Part shown: positions 29,870 through 62,023 of the stretch, piece by piece
How positions within the stretch are numbered: the first letter of the stretch is position 1
How the letters are laid out: every line of letters begins with the position of its first letter
Origin: Escherichia phage EPIMAM01
Sequence record: PQ493298
Direction: 5' to 3' (one strand)
Length of the DNA: 64,000 nt
The notes under the pieces: generated by a model
The model's database searches: none
Seen by the model: only the letters and a program-made list of their open reading frames with translations
What the model was told of the DNA's origin: nothing
Translations under genes and position numbers: made by a program

Positions 29870-30135
29870 TGTTCATCCTTCAGAGTTTGATTTACAGCTC
29901 TATTATAAATCAATTCATCATTAAGCTCAGTTAAAGACCTATGATATGTAGTTCTAACTTTATTTCCTTGCATCCAGTGCTTGACGTAAATGAAACCTTG
30001 CTCTACACATTTTTTAAAAATTCGTTCATCTTTTTGAGCTCGGAATTCTGGATTGCATCTAAAAAATTGATTTACGTGACCGTAATCACGTGTAGTATTA
30101 CCTTCATTTTCATAAATAGTGTGAACGACAAACAT
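29866..30135 (-). CDS. hypothetical protein (30.1 position)
   Basis: 89 aa ORF coupled to ligase start. Confidence 0.55.
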   Translation of the reverse strand: MFVVHTIYENEGNTTRDYGHVNQFFRCNPEFRAQKDERIFKKCVEQGFIYVKHWMQGNKVRTTYHRSLTELNDELIYNRAVNQTLKDEQ

Positions 30136-51675: not shown

Positions 51676-54600
51676 ATGGCCGAGATTAAAAGAAAGTTCA
51701 GAGCAGAAGATGGTCTGGACGCAGGTGGCGATAAAATAATCAACGTAGCTTTAGCTGATCGTACCGTAGGAACTGACGGTGTTAACGTTGATTACTTAAT
51801 TCAAGAAAACACAGTTCAACAATATGATCCAACTCGTGGATATTTAAAAGATTTTGTAATCATTTATAATAATCGTTTTTGGGCAGCAACGGATAATATT
51901 CCAAAACCTGCTGGAAGTTTTAATAGAATTCGTTGGAAAGCATTACGTACTGATGCTGTATATACAACCGTATCATCTGGACCGTATCAATTAAAATCCG
52001 GAGAAGCAATTTCAGTAGATACATCAGTTGGTAATGACATTGAGTTTACTTTACCACCTTCTCCGCTCGATGGAGAAACAGTAATAATTCAAGATATCGG
52101 TGGAAAACCTGGTATAAATCAGGTTAAAATAAGTTCTTCAAATCAGAGCATTGTTAATTTTAGAGGTGAACAAGTACGTTCAGTTTTAATGACTCATCCA
52201 AAGTCACAGATGATATTCATTTTTAATAATCGTTTGTGGCAAATGTATGTTGCTGATTATAGCAGAGAAGCTGCAATTGTTACTCCATCGACTGCATATC
52301 AAGCACAATCTAATGATTTTATCGTGCGTAGATTTACTTCCGCAGCGCCGATTAATATTAAACTTCCGAGATTTGCTAATCATGGCGATATTATTAATTT
52401 CGTTGATTTAGATAAATTAAATCCACTTTATCATACAATTGTCACGACATATGATGAAACAACTTCAGTACAAGAAGTTGGAACTCATTCCATTGAAGGC
52501 CGTACATCGATTGACGGTTTCTTGATGTTTGATGATAGTGAAAAATTATGGAGATTGTTTGACGGGGATAGTAAAGCACGTTTACGCATTATAACGACTA
52601 ATTCAAACATTCGTCCAAATGAAGAAGTTATGGTATTTGGTGCGAATAATGGAACAACTCAAACAATTGAGCTTCAGCTTCCAACTAATATTTCTGTTGG
52701 TGATACTGTTAAAATTTCCATGAATTACATGAGAAAAGGACAAACAGTTAAAATCAAAGCTGCCGGTGAAGATAAAATTGCTTCTTCAGTTCAATTGCTG
52801 CAATTCCCAAAACGCTCAGAATATCCACCTGAAGCTGAATGGGTGACTGTTCAAGAATTAGTTTTTAACGGTGAAACTAATTATGTTCCAGTTTTACAGC
52901 TTGCTTATATTGAAGATTCTGACGGAAAATACTGGGTTGTACAGCAAAACGTTCCAACTGTTGAAAGAGTCGATTCTTTAAATAATTCTACTAGAGCAAG
53001 ATTAGGCGTAATTGCTTTAGCTACACAAGCCCAAGCTAACGTCGATTTAGAAAATTCTCCACAAAAAGAATTAGCAATTACTCCAGAAACATTAGCTAAC
53101 CGTACTGCTACAGAAACTCGTAGAGGTATCGCAAGAATAGCAACTACTGCTCAAGTAAATCAGAACACTACATTCTCTTTTGCTGATGACCTTATCATCA
53201 CTCCTAAAAAGCTGAATGAAAGAACTGCTACAGAAACTCGCAGAGGTGTTGCTGAAATTGCTACGCAGCAGGAAACTAATACAGGTACTGATGATACTAC
53301 AATCATCACTCCTAAAAAGCTTCAAGCTCGTCAAGGTTCTGAAACATTATCGGGTATTGTAACTTTTGTATCTACCGCAGGAGCTACTCCAGCCTCTAGT
53401 CGTGAATTAAATGGTACAAATGTTTATAATAAAAATACTAATAATTTAGTTGTTTCGCCTAAAGCACTGGATCAGTATAAAGCTACTCCAACGCAACAAG
53501 GTGCAGTAATTTTAGCAGTTGAAAGTGAAGTAATTGCTGGACAAAGCCAAGAAGGATGGGCAAATGCGGTTGTAACACCAGAAACGTTACATAAAAAGAC
53601 ATCAACTGATGGAAGAATTGGTTTAATTGAAATTGCTACGCAAAGCGAAGTTAATACAGGAACTGATTATACTCGCGCAGTCACTCCTAAAACTTTAAAT
53701 GACCGTAGAGCAACTGAAAGTTTAAGTGGTATAGCTGAAATTGCTACGCAAGTTGAATTCGACGCAGGCGTCGACGATACTCGTATCTCTACACCATTAA
53801 AAATTAAAACTAGATTTAATAGTACTGATCGTACTTCTGTTGTTGCTCTATCTGGATTAGTTGAATCAGGAACTCTCTGGGACCATTATACCCTTAATAT
53901 TCTTGAAGCAAATGAGACACAACGTGGTACACTTCGTGTAGCTACACAAGTTGAAGCTGCTGCAGGAAAATTAGATAATGTTTTAATAACTCCTAAAAAG
54001 CTTTTAGGTACTAAATCTACCGAATCGCAAGAAGGTGTTATTAAAGTTGCAACTCAGTCTGAAACCGTGACTGGAACGTCAGCAAATACTGCTGTATCTC
54101 CAAAAAATTTAAAATGGATTGTGCAGAGTGAACCTACTTGGGCAGCCACTCCAGCCATAAGAGGATTTGTTAAAACTTCATCCGGTTCAATTACATTCGT
54201 TGGTAATGATACAGCTGGTTCTACGCAGGACTTAGAGCTATACGAGAAAAATAGTTATGCAGTATCACCATATGAATTAAACCGTGTATTAGCAAATTAT
54301 TTGCCGTTAAAAGCAAAAGCTGCTGACGCAAATTTATTAGATGGTCTAGATTCATCTCAGTTCATTCGTAGGGATATTGCCCAGACAGTTAATGGTTCAC
54401 TAACCTTAACCAAACAAACGAACCTGAGTGCCCCTCTTGTATCATCTAGTACTGCTACGTTTGGTGGATCAGTTTCAGCAAATAGTACACTAACTATTTC
54501 TAATACTGGAACGGCAACTCAATTAATTTTTGAGAAAGGACCTCAAACTGGAACAAACCCGACTCAAACAATGACTGTAAAAGTGTGGGGAAATCAATTT

Positions 54601-55545
54601 AGCGGGGAGTCAGACACAACACGTTCTACTGTATTTGAAGTTAGTGATGAAACTTCTAGTCATTTTTATTCTCAGCGTAATAAAGCTGGTAATATAACAT
54701 TTAATATCAACGGTACAGTAACACCGATAAATGTGAATGCTTCAGGAACATTGAATGCGAATGGCGTTGCAACATTTGGTAATTCAGTCACTGCAACTGG
54801 TGAAATTATTTCTCGAAGCGCAAATGCTTTCCGTGCTATTAATGGAAATTACGGTTTCATTATTCGTAATGACGGGTCAGTAACGAATTTTATGCTTACT
54901 GCATCAGGCAATCAAACTGGTGGATTTAATGGATTGCGTCCATTGTCCATTAATAATCAATCTGGGCAGGTCACAATTGGTGAAAGCTTGATCATTGCTA
55001 AAGGTGCTACTATAAATTCAGGTGGTTTAACTGTTAACTCGAGAATTCGTTCTCAAGGTGTTAAAACATCTGATTTATATACCCGTGCGCCGACATCTGA
55101 TACTGTAGGATTCTGGTCAATCGATATTAATGATTCAGCCACTTATAACCAGTTCCCGGGTTATTTTAAAATGGTTGAAAAAACTAATGAAGTTACTGGA
55201 CTTCCATACTTAGAACGTGGCGAAGAAGTTAAATCTCCTGGTACATTGACTCAGTTTGGTAACACACTTGATTCACTTTACCAAGATTGGATTACTTATC
55301 CAACGACTCCAGAAGCACGTACCACTCGCTGGACACGTACATGGCAAAAAACTAAAAACTCTTGGTCAAGTTTTGTTCAGGTATTTGATGGAGGTAACCC
55401 TCCTCAACCTTCGGATATAGGAGCAATTCCATCTGATAATGGAATAATAGGTAATCTTACTATTCGTGATTTCTTACGAATTGGTAATGTTCGCATTATT
55501 CCTGACCCAGTGAATAAAACTGTTAAATTTGAATGGGTTGAATAA
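51676..55545 (+). CDS. 34: long tail fibre proximal subunit gp34
   Basis: 1289 aa, same length as T4 gp34; internal repeated ITPKKL...ATETRRG motifs. Confidence 0.95.
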   Translation: MAEIKRKFRAEDGLDAGGDKIINVALADRTVGTDGVNVDYLIQENTVQQYDPTRGYLKDFVIIYNNRFWAATDNIPKPAGSFNRIRWKALRTDAVYTTVSSGPYQLKSGEAISVDTSVGNDIEFTLPPSPLDGETVIIQDIGGKPGINQVKISSSNQSIVNFRGEQVRSVLMTHPKSQMIFIFNNRLWQMYVADYSREAAIVTPSTAYQAQSNDFIVRRFTSAAPINIKLPRFANHGDIINFVDLDKLNPLYHTIVTTYDETTSVQEVGTHSIEGRTSIDGFLMFDDSEKLWRLFDGDSKARLRIITTNSNIRPNEEVMVFGANNGTTQTIELQLPTNISVGDTVKISMNYMRKGQTVKIKAAGEDKIASSVQLLQFPKRSEYPPEAEWVTVQELVFNGETNYVPVLQLAYIEDSDGKYWVVQQNVPTVERVDSLNNSTRARLGVIALATQAQANVDLENSPQKELAITPETLANRTATETRRGIARIATTAQVNQNTTFSFADDLIITPKKLNERTATETRRGVAEIATQQETNTGTDDTTIITPKKLQARQGSETLSGIVTFVSTAGATPASSRELNGTNVYNKNTNNLVVSPKALDQYKATPTQQGAVILAVESEVIAGQSQEGWANAVVTPETLHKKTSTDGRIGLIEIATQSEVNTGTDYTRAVTPKTLNDRRATESLSGIAEIATQVEFDAGVDDTRISTPLKIKTRFNSTDRTSVVALSGLVESGTLWDHYTLNILEANETQRGTLRVATQVEAAAGKLDNVLITPKKLLGTKSTESQEGVIKVATQSETVTGTSANTAVSPKNLKWIVQSEPTWAATPAIRGFVKTSSGSITFVGNDTAGSTQDLELYEKNSYAVSPYELNRVLANYLPLKAKAADANLLDGLDSSQFIRRDIAQTVNGSLTLTKQTNLSAPLVSSSTATFGGSVSANSTLTISNTGTATQLIFEKGPQTGTNPTQTMTVKVWGNQFSGESDTTRSTVFEVSDETSSHFYSQRNKAGNITFNINGTVTPINVNASGTLNANGVATFGNSVTATGEIISRSANAFRAINGNYGFIIRNDGSVTNFMLTASGNQTGGFNGLRPLSINNQSGQVTIGESLIIAKGATINSGGLTVNSRIRSQGVKTSDLYTRAPTSDTVGFWSIDINDSATYNQFPGYFKMVEKTNEVTGLPYLERGEEVKSPGTLTQFGNTLDSLYQDWITYPTTPEARTTRWTRTWQKTKNSWSSFVQVFDGGNPPQPSDIGAIPSDNGIIGNLTIRDFLRIGNVRIIPDPVNKTVKFEWVE

Positions 55546-55553
55546 GAGGTATT

Positions 55554-56669
55554 ATGGAAAAATTTATGGCAGAGTTTGGACAAGGATATGTCCAAACGCC
55601 ATTTTTATCGGAAAGCAATTCAGTAAGATATAAAATAAGCATAGCGGGCTCTTGCCCGCTTTCTACTGCAGAGCCATATGTTAAATTTCAGGATAATCCC
55701 GTTGGAAATCAAACATTTAGTGCAGGTCTTCATTTAAGAGTTTTTGACCCTTCTACGGGAGCATTAGTTGATAGTAAGTCATATGCTTTTTCTGCTTCAA
55801 ACAATACAACATCTGCCGCTTTTGTCAGTTTTATGAATTCTTTGTCAAACAATAGACTTGTTGCTATATTAACTAGCGGAAAGGTTAATTTTCCTCCTGA
55901 AGTGGTATCTTGGTTAAGGGGAGCAGGAACTTCAGTTTTTCCATCAGATTCAGTATTGTCAAGATTTGACGTATCATATGCTGCTTTTTATACTTCTTCT
56001 AAAAGAGCTATTGCATTAGAGCATGTTAAACTAAGTAATAGAAAAAGCACAGATGATTATCAAACTATTTTAGATGTTGTATTTGATAGTTTAGAAGACG
56101 TCGGAGCTACGGGATTTCCTAAAAGAACATATGAAAGTGTCGAGCAATTTATGTCAGCGGTTGGTGGAACTAACAACGAAATTGCGCGATTGCCAACTTC
56201 AGCTGCTATAAGTAAACTATCTGATTATAATTTAATTCCTGGTGATGTTCTTTATCTTAAAGCACAGTTATATGCTGATGCTGATTTACTTGATCTTGGA
56301 ACTACAAATATATCTATCCGTTTTTATAATGCATCAAATGGATATATTTCTTCAACACAGGCTGAGTTTACTGGGCAAGCTGGGTCATGGGAATTAAAGG
56401 AAGATTATGTAGTTGTTCCTGAAAATGCAGTCGGATTTACTATATATGCGCAGAGAACTGCTCAAGCTGGTCAAGGCGGACTGAGGAATTTAAGCTTTTC
56501 TGAAGTATCAAGAAATGGCGGCATTTCAAAACCTGCCGAATTTGGCGTCAACGGTATTCGCGTTAATTATGTCTGTGAATCGGCTTCACCTCCAGATATA
56601 ATGGTACTTCCTACACAAGCCTCTTCTAAAACTGGCAAAGTGTTTGGGCAAGAATTTAGAGAAGTTTAA
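55554..56669 (+). CDS. 35: long tail fibre hinge connector gp35
   Basis: 371 aa; synteny. Confidence 0.9.
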   Translation: MEKFMAEFGQGYVQTPFLSESNSVRYKISIAGSCPLSTAEPYVKFQDNPVGNQTFSAGLHLRVFDPSTGALVDSKSYAFSASNNTTSAAFVSFMNSLSNNRLVAILTSGKVNFPPEVVSWLRGAGTSVFPSDSVLSRFDVSYAAFYTSSKRAIALEHVKLSNRKSTDDYQTILDVVFDSLEDVGATGFPKRTYESVEQFMSAVGGTNNEIARLPTSAAISKLSDYNLIPGDVLYLKAQLYADADLLDLGTTNISIRFYNASNGYISSTQAEFTGQAGSWELKEDYVVVPENAVGFTIYAQRTAQAGQGGLRNLSFSEVSRNGGISKPAEFGVNGIRVNYVCESASPPDIMVLPTQASSKTGKVFGQEFREV

Positions 56670-56731: not shown

Positions 56732-57382
56732 ATGGCTGATTTAAAAGTAGGTTCAACTGTGGGTGGATCTGTCATTTGGCATCAAGGAAATTTTCCATTG
56801 AATTCAGCCGGTGACGATGTACTCTACAAATCATTTAAAATATATTCAGAATATAATAAACCACAGGCAGCTGATAACGATTTCGTTTCTAAAGCTAATG
56901 GTGGTACTTACACCGGTCCAATTACTATTAATTACGGGGTAAATAGTTATCTTCAATTAAGTAATAATGAAACCCCCATTCGAATTCGTTCTGGTGGCGG
57001 TACCGGCAATACTCTTGTAGTTGGCGGCTCTTCTGGCGGTATTAGTTTTAGACCTGCAGGTAGTGAAATCACTACTGGACAAATTACTATTACGCCAGAA
57101 GGTTTGACAACATTTACCAGGGCTGTAACGGCTCCATCTGTAACTGTTACATCTACTCCTTCAGCAGCATCTGATGTTACTCGTAAAGATTATGTCGATG
57201 GAGCAATAAATACTGTTACGGCAAATGCGAATTCTAGAGTTTTGCGTAAAGGTGACACCATGACAGGTAATTTAACAGCGCCAAACTTTTTCTCGCAGAA
57301 TCCTGCATCTCAACCCTCGCATGTTCCACGATTTGACCAAATCGTGATTAAGGATTCTGTTCAAGATTTCGGCTATTATTAA
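56732..57382 (+). CDS. 36: long tail fibre distal connector gp36
   Basis: 216 aa; synteny. Confidence 0.9.
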
Positions 57383-57390
57383 GAGGACTT

Positions 57391-60375
57391 ATGGCTACTT
57401 TAAAACAAATACAATTTAAAAGAAGCAAAACTGCAGGTCAACGTCCTGCTGCTTCAGTATTAGCCGAAGGTGAATTGGCTATTAATTTAAAAGATAAAAC
57501 AATTTTCACAAAAGATGACTCAGGCAGTGTTATAGAATTAGGTTTAAAATATGGAGGAACAATTGATGGTTCTTTAACTGTTAATGGAAGTATAATTGGA
57601 AATTTAACAGGTAACGCTGCAACTGCAACGAAATTGCAAACACCTAGGAAAATTAATGGTATATCTTTTGATGGGTCAAAGGACATTACCTTAACTCCAT
57701 CTGACATAAATGTCAATAGCACAACGTTTATAAAAAATAACGGCGAATTACCGGTTGATGCTAATTTAGATGAGTATGGGCCTGTTGAAGAATATCTTGG
57801 AGTTTGGTCGAAAGAAACTTCAACCAACGCTCAACCAGCAAATAAATTTCCAGAAGAAAATGCTGTAGGTGTGCTAGAAGTATTTGTGGCCGGTCAATTT
57901 GCTGGTACTCAGAGATATACAACCAGATACGGAAATGTTTATATTCGTTCCTTGACTGCTACATGGAACGGAGTAAATGGTCCGTGGAGTGTGTGGCGAA
58001 ATATTCAATCCGGTACTCGTCCACTGTCAACAACAATTGATCTTAATGATCTAGGAGGTGCTGAACACTTTGGCTTGTGGAGGAATAGTTCAAATTCCAT
58101 TGCTACCTTTGACAGAAATTTCCCAGAAGAGGGGTCGTCCGCTCAAGGTCTTTTGGAAGTATATGAAGGTGGAAACTATTCTCGTACGCAAAGATATACA
58201 ACCAGATTTGGTGTTGTTTATACTCGCTGTCTTACTGCTGCGTGGAATGCTTCTGCGCCTAAATGGGGACCGTGGCAACAAGTCGGTAATGTCACACCGG
58301 CGACTTTCTATGACGGAGACCTGAATGATTTTAAAACTCCTGGGTTATATAATATTTTAGGTACTGATGCCGTTATTAACTGTCCTACAGGTGAAGGTTT
58401 ACCAGCCGTTATTGTTGGTTTGCTGGAAGTTAAACAGCGTGCTTCTGGTGGTGCTATTTTCCAAAAATTTACTACTGCCGGAACAGGTACAACTACTCGC
58501 GGACGTATTTTTGAGCGTGCATACACTAATGGTGTTTGGGGTACATGGAACGAAGTATATACATCTTATTCTCTGCCAATTACTTTGGGTATGGGTGGTA
58601 TTAAAGCTCAATTAGCGGAGTTAGATTGGCAAGCCTTTGATTTTGTCCCTGGTAGTATGTTTAGCGTTCCTTTGAATAAAATAAAGAACATGCCAGCAAA
58701 TATGGATTGGGGGACGATTGATGGAAACTTGGTTATGTTTTCTGTCGGTCCTAGCGAACATACTAGCACAGGGCGTACTGTTCAGGTTTGGCGTGGTACT
58801 GTATCCCAGACAAACTACCGTTATTTTGTCGTTCGTGTATTCGGTAATTCAGGAAATAGAACTTGCACAGTTCGTCGTGTTGTTCTTGAAGATGGTCGCC
58901 ACAAATGGACAGCGCAGCAAGATTTTAATGGCGCAGTTAACTTCGGTGCTCCTACCAATTTTAACTCTACTGTTAACCTTAATAACACTACCACTTTTAA
59001 AACAGAAGTTAAATTCCGCTCATTGAATGCATTTAAAATGTACGGCGGTAAGTTTGGCGCAATTTTCCGTAATGATGGAGAGAGTCTTTATATTCTTTCC
59101 ACCGACGAAGATGATCAAGATGGAAACTTTAATACAAATAGACCTTTCCGTTATGAATTGAGAACTGGTGATGTTACTTTAGGTGGTACTAGTGGTGCTA
59201 ACGTTTTAAAATTAAAACGTGATTCTCTCACCGCATTTTTTGGTGGTGATATTAATATAAAAGGCTTGATGACTTTTGACGCTGGACGTTTAGGATCACG
59301 AGATTATTTTAAATTTAACCATTGGGGTGATAGTAATAATGCGCGTGATAACATTATTCAGTTAGAAGACAGCAAAGGAGTTCATTTTTCTACTGAACGT
59401 ACTTTAGCGACTGGTGCAATTAAAACTAAATTCTTTGGTGAAGTTGAATCCGATGGTAGATTGATTATTAAACGTCCGGGTGATTCTATTGTATTATCAG
59501 CACCTGCTAGTAATTCTTTGCATATTCGTGGTGACGTAGACGGGACTAATAACTGGTATATTGGTAAGGGTGGTGATGATAATGGATTAGCGTTCTATAG
59601 TTATGCTACTAATGCTGGTGTATACATTACAAACGCAGGAGATATCACGCTAAGTCCAAAAGGCGTCGAAATGGCTCATGTTAATAACGTTCGATTATAT
59701 GTTCATGGTGAACGTTGGACCGCTAGTCAACCAGGTGATTGGGGCAACCAATGGCGAGTAGAAGCGCCAATATTCGTCGATCATGGTTATGTTGGACCAG
59801 ATAGTTATTATCCAATTATTAAAGGAAGAAGTGTAGTCACCAATCAAGGGTTTGTAACTGCCGTCGATCTTGGTATTCGTCGTATCCCTAATAATTGGGG
59901 ACAAGCAATTATTCGTGTTGGATCTGCGGAGGCTTCTCCTGATGCTGGTCATCCTAACGCGATATTCGAGTTCCACTATGATGGGTTCTTTTATGCACCA
60001 GGAAATGGAAGTTTTAATGATGTGTATATTCGTTCCGATGGTCGTCTTAAGATTAATAAAAAAGAGCTAGAAAACGGAGCGGTTGAAAAAGTTTGCCGAC
60101 TGAAAGTTTATACTTACGATAAAGTTAAGTCTATTAAAGACCGTAGTGTTATTAAACATGAAGTTGGTATTATTGCGCAGGATCTTGAAAAGGAATTGCC
60201 AGAAGCTGTATCTAAAGTTGAAGTTGATGGATCTGATGTTCTGACAATTTCTAACTCTGCTGTGAATGCTCTTTTAATTAAGGCCATTCAGGAAATGAGC
60301 GAAGAAATTAAAGAATTGAAAACACCTTTCTTCACTAAAATTGCTCGTAAAATTAGCAATTATTTTAAATTCTAA
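57391..60375 (+). CDS. 37: long tail fibre distal subunit gp37 with C-terminal intramolecular chaperone domain
   Basis: 994 aa; synteny; C-terminal ~113 aa begin SDGRLKINK and contain [15 protein letters not shown] and [17 protein letters not shown]. Confidence 0.92.
60034..60372 (+). other. predicted auto-cleaving intramolecular chaperone (peptidase S74-like) domain of gp37
   Basis: Motifs [14 protein letters not shown] and LLIKAIQE read in translation. Confidence 0.7.
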
Positions 60376-60381
60376 CAACAA

Positions 60382-60394
60382 GGGGCTTTGCCCC
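60382..60394 (+). terminator. stem-loop GGGGC-TTTG-CCCC between genes 37 and 38
   Basis: Inverted repeat directly after gene 37 stop. Confidence 0.45.
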
Positions 60395-60407
60395 TTTGGA
60401 GAAAATT

Positions 60408-61335
60408 ATGGCAGTAGTTGGTGTTCCTGGTTGGATTGGAAGTTCATCCGTAAATGAAACAGGACAACGATGGATGAGTCAAGCGGCTGGTCAATTAAGA
60501 TTGGGTGTTCCTTGCTGGATGAGTCAATTTGCAGGTCGCTCAAGAGAAATTATTCACACACTTGGAGCAGACCATAACTTCAATGGTCAATGGTTCCGAG
60601 ATAGATGTTTTGAGGCAGGTAGTGCACCTATAGTGTTTAATATCACCGGAAATTTGGTATCATATTCTAGAGATGTTCCTTTATTCTTCATGTATGGAGA
60701 TACACCAAATGAATATGTTCAGTTGAATATTAGCGGTGGAGCTCATATGTGGGGCAGAGGTGGACAAGGTGGATGGACTCATTCTGGTGGGGATGGTAAT
60801 GGTCAACAGGGTGGGCATTGTATTCAAAATGACATTGGTGGTCGATTAAGAATTAATAATGGTGGAGTAATTTGTGGCGGTGGCGGCGGTGGCGGCGGTA
60901 TCGCTTCTCGTCCTCACTCTGGTGCAAACTGGAAAGATATTGGTGGCGGTGGAGGAAGACCATTTGGCCCAGGAGGTGGCGGTGGTTATTCAGGAGGCGC
61001 TGCTTCTTGGCGGCGGTGGCGGCGGTATCGCTTCTCGTCCTCACTCTGGTGCAAACTGGAAAGATATTGGTGGCGGTGGAGGAAGACCATTTGGCCCAGG
61101 AGGTGGCGGTGGTTATTCAGGAGGCGCTGCTTCTTACGATGGCCCAGGAGGTGGTTATAATTATGGTAATGCTCACTCCGGTCAGGGTGGTGATGCTGGT
61201 GCAAATGGACAAAATGCCTGGTATGATGGCGGTAAAGTACTAAAAGTCGGCGCTGGCGGCGCTGCTGGTTATGCCGTCATAGGATCAGCACCAACATGGC
61301 AAAATGTTGGAATAATATATGGTCCAAGAGTATAA
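60408..61335 (+). pseudogene. 38: T2-type gp38 receptor-binding adhesin, frame broken by 127-bp tandem duplication
   Basis: ATG at 60408 ([11 protein letters not shown]...) with GGAG SD; glycine-rich motifs; upstream frame stops at 61160, C-terminal part continues in +1 frame to 61335. Confidence 0.8.
60882..61135 (+). repeat. perfect direct tandem duplication, 2 x 127 bp
   Basis: Copy 1 60882-61008 and copy 2 61009-61135 identical at every position on manual comparison. Confidence 0.9.
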
Positions 61336-61366: not shown

Positions 61367-62023
61367 ATGGCAGCACCTAGAATATCATTTTCGCCCTCTG
61401 ATATTCTGTTTGGTGTTCTAGATCGCTTGTTCAAAGATAACGCTACCGGGAAAGTTCTTGCTTCCCGGGTAGCTGTCGTAATTCTTTTGTTTATAATGGC
61501 GATTGTTTGGTATAGGGGAGATAGTTTCTTTGAGTACTATAAGCAATCAAAGTATGAAACATACAGCGAAATTATTGAAAAGGAAAGAAATGCACGCTTT
61601 GAATCTGTCGCCCTGGAACAACTCCAGATAGTTCATATATCATCTGAGGCAGACTTTAGTGCGGTGTATTCTTTCCGCCCTAAAAACTTAAACTATTTTG
61701 TTGATATTATAGCATACGAAGGAAAACTACCTTCAACAATAAGTGAAAAATCACTTGGAGGATATCCTGTTGATAAAACTATGGATGAATATGCAGTTCA
61801 TTTAAATGGACGTCATTATTATTCAAACTCAAAATTTGCTTTTTTACCAACTAAAAAGCCTACTCCCGAAATAAATTACATGTACAGTTGTCCATATTTT
61901 AATTTGGATAATATCTATGCTGGAACAATAACCATGTACTGGTATAGAAATGATCATATAAGTAATGACCGCCTTGAATCAATATGTGCTCAGGCGGCCA
62001 GAATATTAGGAAGGGCTAAATAA
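61367..62023 (+). CDS. t: holin T
   Basis: 218 aa, one N-terminal transmembrane segment and large C-terminal domain; same length as T4 T. Confidence 0.92.
   Translation: MAAPRISFSPSDILFGVLDRLFKDNATGKVLASRVAVVILLFIMAIVWYRGDSFFEYYKQSKYETYSEIIEKERNARFESVALEQLQIVHISSEADFSAVYSFRPKNLNYFVDIIAYEGKLPSTISEKSLGGYPVDKTMDEYAVHLNGRHYYSNSKFAFLPTKKPTPEINYMYSCPYFNLDNIYAGTITMYWYRNDHISNDRLESICAQAARILGRAK

Follow-up and report, generated by a model that had tools for sequence, protein, structure and literature searches.

We identified a Peptidase S74-type intramolecular chaperone (IMC) domain in residues 882–994 of gp37, the distal subunit of the long tail fibre of Escherichia phage EPIMAM01 (PQ493298). The domain very probably takes part in the self-cleaving arrangement of T2, T6 and S16, in which the C-terminus of gp37 would be removed and gp38 would dock on the tip that this exposes. 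The window analyzed is a 64,000-nt stretch of this record, read on one strand. Within its family the domain is a textbook member, and the arrangement is an ordinary one for T2-type phages that has been the subject of earlier publications (Trojet et al.; Salem et al. 2021).

A T-even long-tail-fibre cluster lies on the plus strand of the window, in the order 34-35-36-37-38-t. Gene 38 is described below, and the other members found in the ORF list of the window are the following.

51676..55545, + strand: gp34
55554..56669, + strand: gp35
56732..57382, + strand: gp36
57391..60375, + strand: gene 37, long tail fibre distal subunit, stop codon included; 994 aa, predicted 109.2 kDa
61367..62023, + strand: holin t

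The order and annotations of the cluster agree with those of T4, T2 and Escherichia phage PBM-1. The gp37 protein matches PHROG 1699 ('long tail fiber protein distal subunit') over its full length (residues 1–989, E=8.5e-228), and its stop codon occupies positions 60373–60375. It is 99.7% identical to gp37 of PBM-1, from which it differs by 7 nt and three amino acids. Within the phage collection, the closest genomes share 97–98% identity with the window over its positions 30000–52000, a 22-kb stretch. Across the whole 64-kb window neither a tRNA scan nor an Rfam scan at the gathering score gave a match.

The domain is located at the extreme C-terminus of gp37, where it makes up the last 113 of 994 residues and opens with the predicted catalytic motif.

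60034..60372, + strand: IMC / Peptidase S74 domain, S882-F994, 113 aa, 12.8 kDa
60034..60051, + strand: predicted catalytic motif S882-D-G-R-L-K887, with Ser as nucleophile and Lys as base, spacing i,i+5

An earlier note on this DNA had described the last ~113 residues of gp37 as starting with SDGRLKINK and containing two further motifs, and all three are present in the translation of 60034–60372. The note had also read these residues as a domain of the self-cleaving-chaperone type and had named a profile-HMM search as a check. That search is positive, with a match of the segment to Pfam PF13884 (Peptidase_S74, 'chaperone of endosialidase') at E=4.7e-12 and 46.4 bits, the gathering score being 22. 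The alignment covers profile positions 1–57 of 58, and profile position 1 falls on S882. The predicted fold and the conservation of the Ser/Lys dyad agree with the same reading.

With the last 154 residues of gp37 as query, a search of a protein collection recovered 57 homologues, nearly all of which were already annotated with PF13884. In an alignment of 37 of these, with identities between 94% and 30%, S882, D883, L886 and K887 are invariant in every sequence, as is the motif GxIAQxL. In PHROG, 25 or more tail-fibre families match the IMC at E <= 4.7e-06, nearly all at or near their own C-terminal end, with residues 1–97 of the segment aligning to the C-termini of the families. With tblastn the IMC was found in 1342 phage records, of which nearly all carry a tail-fibre annotation; they include phages of Escherichia, Klebsiella, Salmonella, Vibrio, Aeromonas and Streptococcus (PblB). 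The IMC of the window is of a subtype with a 17-residue tail (60322–60372, gp37 residues 978–994) that extends past the end of most aligned homologues. This tail is common to close relatives, and in the model it prolongs the C-terminal helix.

The structure of the 154-aa query was predicted with AlphaFold2 as a monomer, using the alignment of homologues. The model has a mean pLDDT of 74, with values of 83–89 across most of the core. The modelled fold has a helix and then four strands, among which a short helix is inserted, and closes with a long C-terminal helix; in the numbering of the query the strands span residues 66–113 and the long helix residues 115–151.

60253..60363, + strand: long C-terminal helix of the IMC, gp37 residues ~955–991; pLDDT 62–89, dropping towards the C-terminus

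By analogy with the structures of T5 and endoNF, this helix presumably forms a trimeric coiled coil. In a Foldseek search of the PDB the best 12 matches are all S74-type (IMC or ICA) domains, and the matches below them are noise. The top match is the ICA domain of MyRF (7DC3, E=8e-6, TM ~0.6), and endoNF (3GW6), GA-1 (3GUD) and T5 pb1 (4UW8) are also among the 12. The cleavage junction (residues 37–42 of the model) has a pLDDT below 50, and given that the model is in addition a monomer, it supports the fold and not the geometry of the active site.

The solved protein nearest in sequence is the S16 gp37 construct 6F45_A (E=1.5e-5 with a single sequence, 3.8e-17 with a profile), in which SDRRIK aligns opposite SDGRLK. 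The MyRF ICA domain is also reached by a sequence profile (E=4.7e-4). When the 113 residues were compared as a single sequence with the whole PDB by phmmer (E<=10), endoNF and T5 were not reached, and the only matches were S16 6F45, 8JOV and one spurious kinase. The link to endoNF and T5 is thus provided by Pfam and the fold search.

Cleavage of gp37 in T2 and T6 has been known since 1986, and the C-terminal processing of T2 gp37, the classical case, was reportedly described by Drexler, Riede and Henning in that year. For S16 and T2-type phages, published work suggests that gp37 is also helped to fold by gp57A and, in some descriptions, by gp38, so that 'its own chaperone' may be necessary yet insufficient. 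In T5 pb1 the bond between Thr1263 and Ser1264 is cut through a Ser1264/Lys1269 mechanism, and the substitution S1264A blocks cleavage (PMC4690869). The spacing of S882 and K887 in the window is identical to that of Ser1264 and Lys1269. Salem et al. (2021; PMC7917993) describe the last 113 residues of S16 gp37 as an IMC that is autocleaved, exposing the docking surface for gp38. For the Yersinia phages fPS-2, -65 and -90 a cleavage site of DVYIR^SDGRLKI has been predicted (Salem et al. 2021; PMC7917993). The earlier note placed the cut in the window at the Ser-Asp junction. However, homology with S16 (DLNVS^SDRRIKK) and T5 puts it on the N-terminal side of the serine, between R881 and S882, so that mature gp37 should end in NDVYIR.

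60031..60036, + strand: predicted scissile bond R881 (cgt) / S882 (tcc), from homology to S16, fPS and T5
57391..60033, + strand: predicted mature gp37, residues 1–881, 96.4 kDa, from alignments of the S16, fPS and T2 junctions

In the mechanism we propose, the IMC would align three nascent gp37 chains in register, with the C-terminal helices forming a trimeric coiled coil beside the small alpha/beta unit, and would serve as the template on which the beta-structured tip at the fibre's C-terminus folds. After correct folding of the tip, Lys887 would activate Ser882 for an attack on the R881-S882 bond in each chain. This would release the trimer of the 12.8-kDa IMC and leave the 96.4-kDa, 881-residue mature protein with its NDVYIR terminus. 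The last beta-strand of mature gp37 would then act as the docking tip, and its DVYIR end would be presented to the N-terminal domain of gp38, which carries tryptophans. The docking of the gp38 N-terminal domain on the gp37 tip comes from work on S16, as quoted in PMC7917993 and PMC12032242.

A likeness to S74 domains that arises by chance or from composition, for example from a coiled-coil-like helix, might be suspected, as the C-terminal third of the segment is a Lys/Glu-rich helix and the single-sequence phmmer search of the PDB misses endoNF and T5. However, the Pfam match lies in the N-terminal alpha/beta part (segment residues 1–59), outside the helix, and exceeds the gathering score by 24 bits. 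Moreover, only IMC domains are found at the top of the fold search, and nearly all of the phage records found by tblastn are tail fibres. The chance explanation has next to no probability in our view, and it is refuted by the Pfam score, the invariance of the dyad, the fold search and the profile match to 6F45_A. The domain could instead be a true S74 homologue that has lost cleavage and is retained as a permanent C-terminal cap, with gp38 bound elsewhere or not at all. The low confidence of the junction in the model and the disruption of gp38 in the window are in favor of such a cap, as is the fact that cleavage of gp37 is here predicted from homology. In addition, when compared by eye along the linear sequence rather than by structural alignment, there is no Arg at the offset of the T5 folding-sensor Arg (14 residues before the Ser), and this position is occupied by Tyr868. 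Against a permanent cap, the Ser/Lys dyad and the SDxxLK motif are invariant, and the junction matches that of the fPS phages exactly and that of T2, whose gp37 is known to be processed, almost exactly. We therefore consider the loss of cleavage very unlikely and favor autoprocessing before S882.

The gene order 34-35-36-37-38-t is also that of T4, and it would be compatible with a T4-type locus in which gp38 is an assembly chaperone only and the tip of gp37 binds the receptor. The domain content of the two proteins speaks against this. T4 gp37 contains Collar and Phage_fiber domains (PF07484 and PF03335) and has no match to S74 (PF13884) in Pfam, and T4 gp38 is unrelated, with no match to PF05268. 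Neither of the two T4 tip domains was matched by gp37 of the window in the Pfam search. In contrast, T2 gp37 (1341 aa) has PF13884 at residues 1243–1300, and T2 gp38 consists of PF21721 and PF05268, the same two families that are found in gp38 of the window. The C-terminal regions of the T2 and window gp37 proteins are 42% identical over 125 aa, and the junction NVYIR^SDIRLK of T2 corresponds to DVYIR^SDGRLK in the window. Because the T2 pattern is shared in both gp37 and gp38 and the T4 pattern is absent, the locus is T2-type, as the earlier note had maintained. A T4-type tip is exceedingly improbable, and it is refuted by the Pfam comparison of gp37 and gp38 from the window, T4 and T2. The phage belongs to the adhesin-capped class of T2, T6 and S16, and its host range is thus expected to be determined by the loops of gp38 and not by gp37.

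Directly downstream of gp37, gene 38 encodes an adhesin of the T2 type whose reading frame is interrupted.

60408..61335, + strand: gene 38, T2-type tail-fibre adhesin (PF21721, PF05268), frame broken by a duplication
60408..60533, + strand: N-terminal attachment domain of gp38 (PF21721), intact
60881-61007 and 61008-61134, + strand: two perfect tandem 127-nt copies within gp38, from a repeat search, 100% identity

The match to PF21721 (Gp38_N) has E=1.4e-19 and covers residues 5–46 of the TTG-started ORF, and the match to PF05268 (GP38) has E=4.1e-52 and covers profile positions 1–152, with a second ORF accounting for profile positions 108–218. In the program-made ORF list gp38 starts at TTG 60396, whereas the annotation of PBM-1 and the Shine-Dalgarno spacing favor ATG 60408. 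The gap between the gp37 stop and the gp38 Shine-Dalgarno sequence GGAG contains, within 60380–60401, a GC-rich hairpin at 60380–60396, AAGGGGC-TTT-GCCCCTT. It folds at -13 kcal/mol, and its stability does not significantly exceed that of shuffles (z=-1.35).

The earlier note had referred to a duplicated gp38. A tandem duplication of 127 nt is indeed present, but the gene itself is not duplicated, and the repeat is internal to a single gp38. As 127 equals 3x42+1, the frame of gp38 shifts after residue 200. The frameshifted product is 250 aa in length and ends in a 50-aa Trp/Arg-rich out-of-frame tail, while the second ORF holds the remainder of the protein. The intact gp38 reading frame that a functional adhesin cap needs is therefore not found in the window. 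Removal of one copy of the repeat yields an intact 266-aa gp38 that differs from PBM-1 gp38 by 2 nt. Both of these differences are located in a loop between glycine-rich motifs, within the duplicated unit and in both copies, and they alter a 15-residue stretch of gp38 relative to PBM-1. The repeat boundaries have only 1 nt of microhomology. The duplication junction is spanned by none of 50,697 phage records, a set that includes PBM-1 and not the source genome.

The 127-nt duplication may be a sequence artefact. In the reading that it is real, which we consider unlikely, the processed DVYIR tip would be capped only by a truncated adhesin, or by nothing. Since the attachment domain is intact, the truncated gp38 could still be able to attach to the tip of gp37, with an incomplete polyglycine receptor-binding domain. 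Given the frameshift in gp38, a complete T2-type tip may not assemble from this exact sequence. A real duplication would combine an intact attachment domain with a scrambled receptor-binding domain. It would capture, in a natural genome, an adhesin in the course of remodelling by duplication, or else a T2-type phage that is able to adsorb although its gp38 does not work.

The site DVYIR^SDGRLKI has already been predicted (PMC7917993), and the domain in the window is thus a re-identification of a known feature. For annotation, the gain is that the predicted C-terminus of mature gp37 is fixed at R881. It has been described that the C-terminal subtype of gp37 and the N-terminal subtype of gp38 must match as a lock and key (PMC3157838), and the placement of the gp37 end at R881 is therefore useful for fibre engineering and for swaps of gp38 adhesins. 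Beyond correct annotation the finding carries little weight, and the frameshifting duplication in gp38 is a separate feature that deserves attention.

Among the known systems, the best structural match to the IMC of the window is its eukaryotic homologue, the ICA domain of MyRF (7DC3). MyRF is a membrane-bound transcription factor of animals, however, and its cleavage frees a nuclear fragment and has no role in fibre maturation. The domains of endoNF (3GW6), GA-1 gp12 (3GUD) and T5 pb1 (4UW8), of MEROPS S74 and PF13884, share with the window the Pfam family, the spacing of the dyad, the predicted fold, and a C-terminal location on a trimeric fibre or spike. They differ in their cargo, which consists of tailspikes and L-shaped fibres in these proteins and of a T-even long tail fibre in the window, and their sequence similarity to the domain of the window is below pairwise detection. 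Recruitment of a separate adhesin by the exposed end is not known from endoNF, GA-1 or T5.

S16 (PDB 6F45) has a C-terminal IMC of the same 113 residues in length, which is autocleaved before SDRRIK, and the N-terminal domain of its gp38 docks on the exposed end of the gp37 trimer. Even so, the match between the S16 and window IMCs is weak when a single sequence is used (28 bits), and the fibre upstream of the last ~5 residues before the cut is unrelated. T2 resembles the window in the location of PF13884 at the extreme C-terminus of gp37, in the VYIR^SD junction and in a gp38 composed of PF05268 and PF21721. Its gp37 is longer (1341 compared with 994 aa), and its IMC is shorter (99 compared with 113 aa). 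Close relatives of the domain are found in phage UGKSEcP1, where tblastn shows the IMC to be 100% identical, and in the gene 37 fragment of phage M1 (X05676), where it is 96.5% identical. The fPS phages have the window's own junction, DVYIR^SDGRLKI. In PBM-1 the IMC differs by one substitution, S989R, and a T2-type gp38 likewise follows gp37. Essentially nothing in the IMC separates these close relatives from the window, and the difference lies in the 127-nt duplication of the neighbouring gp38.
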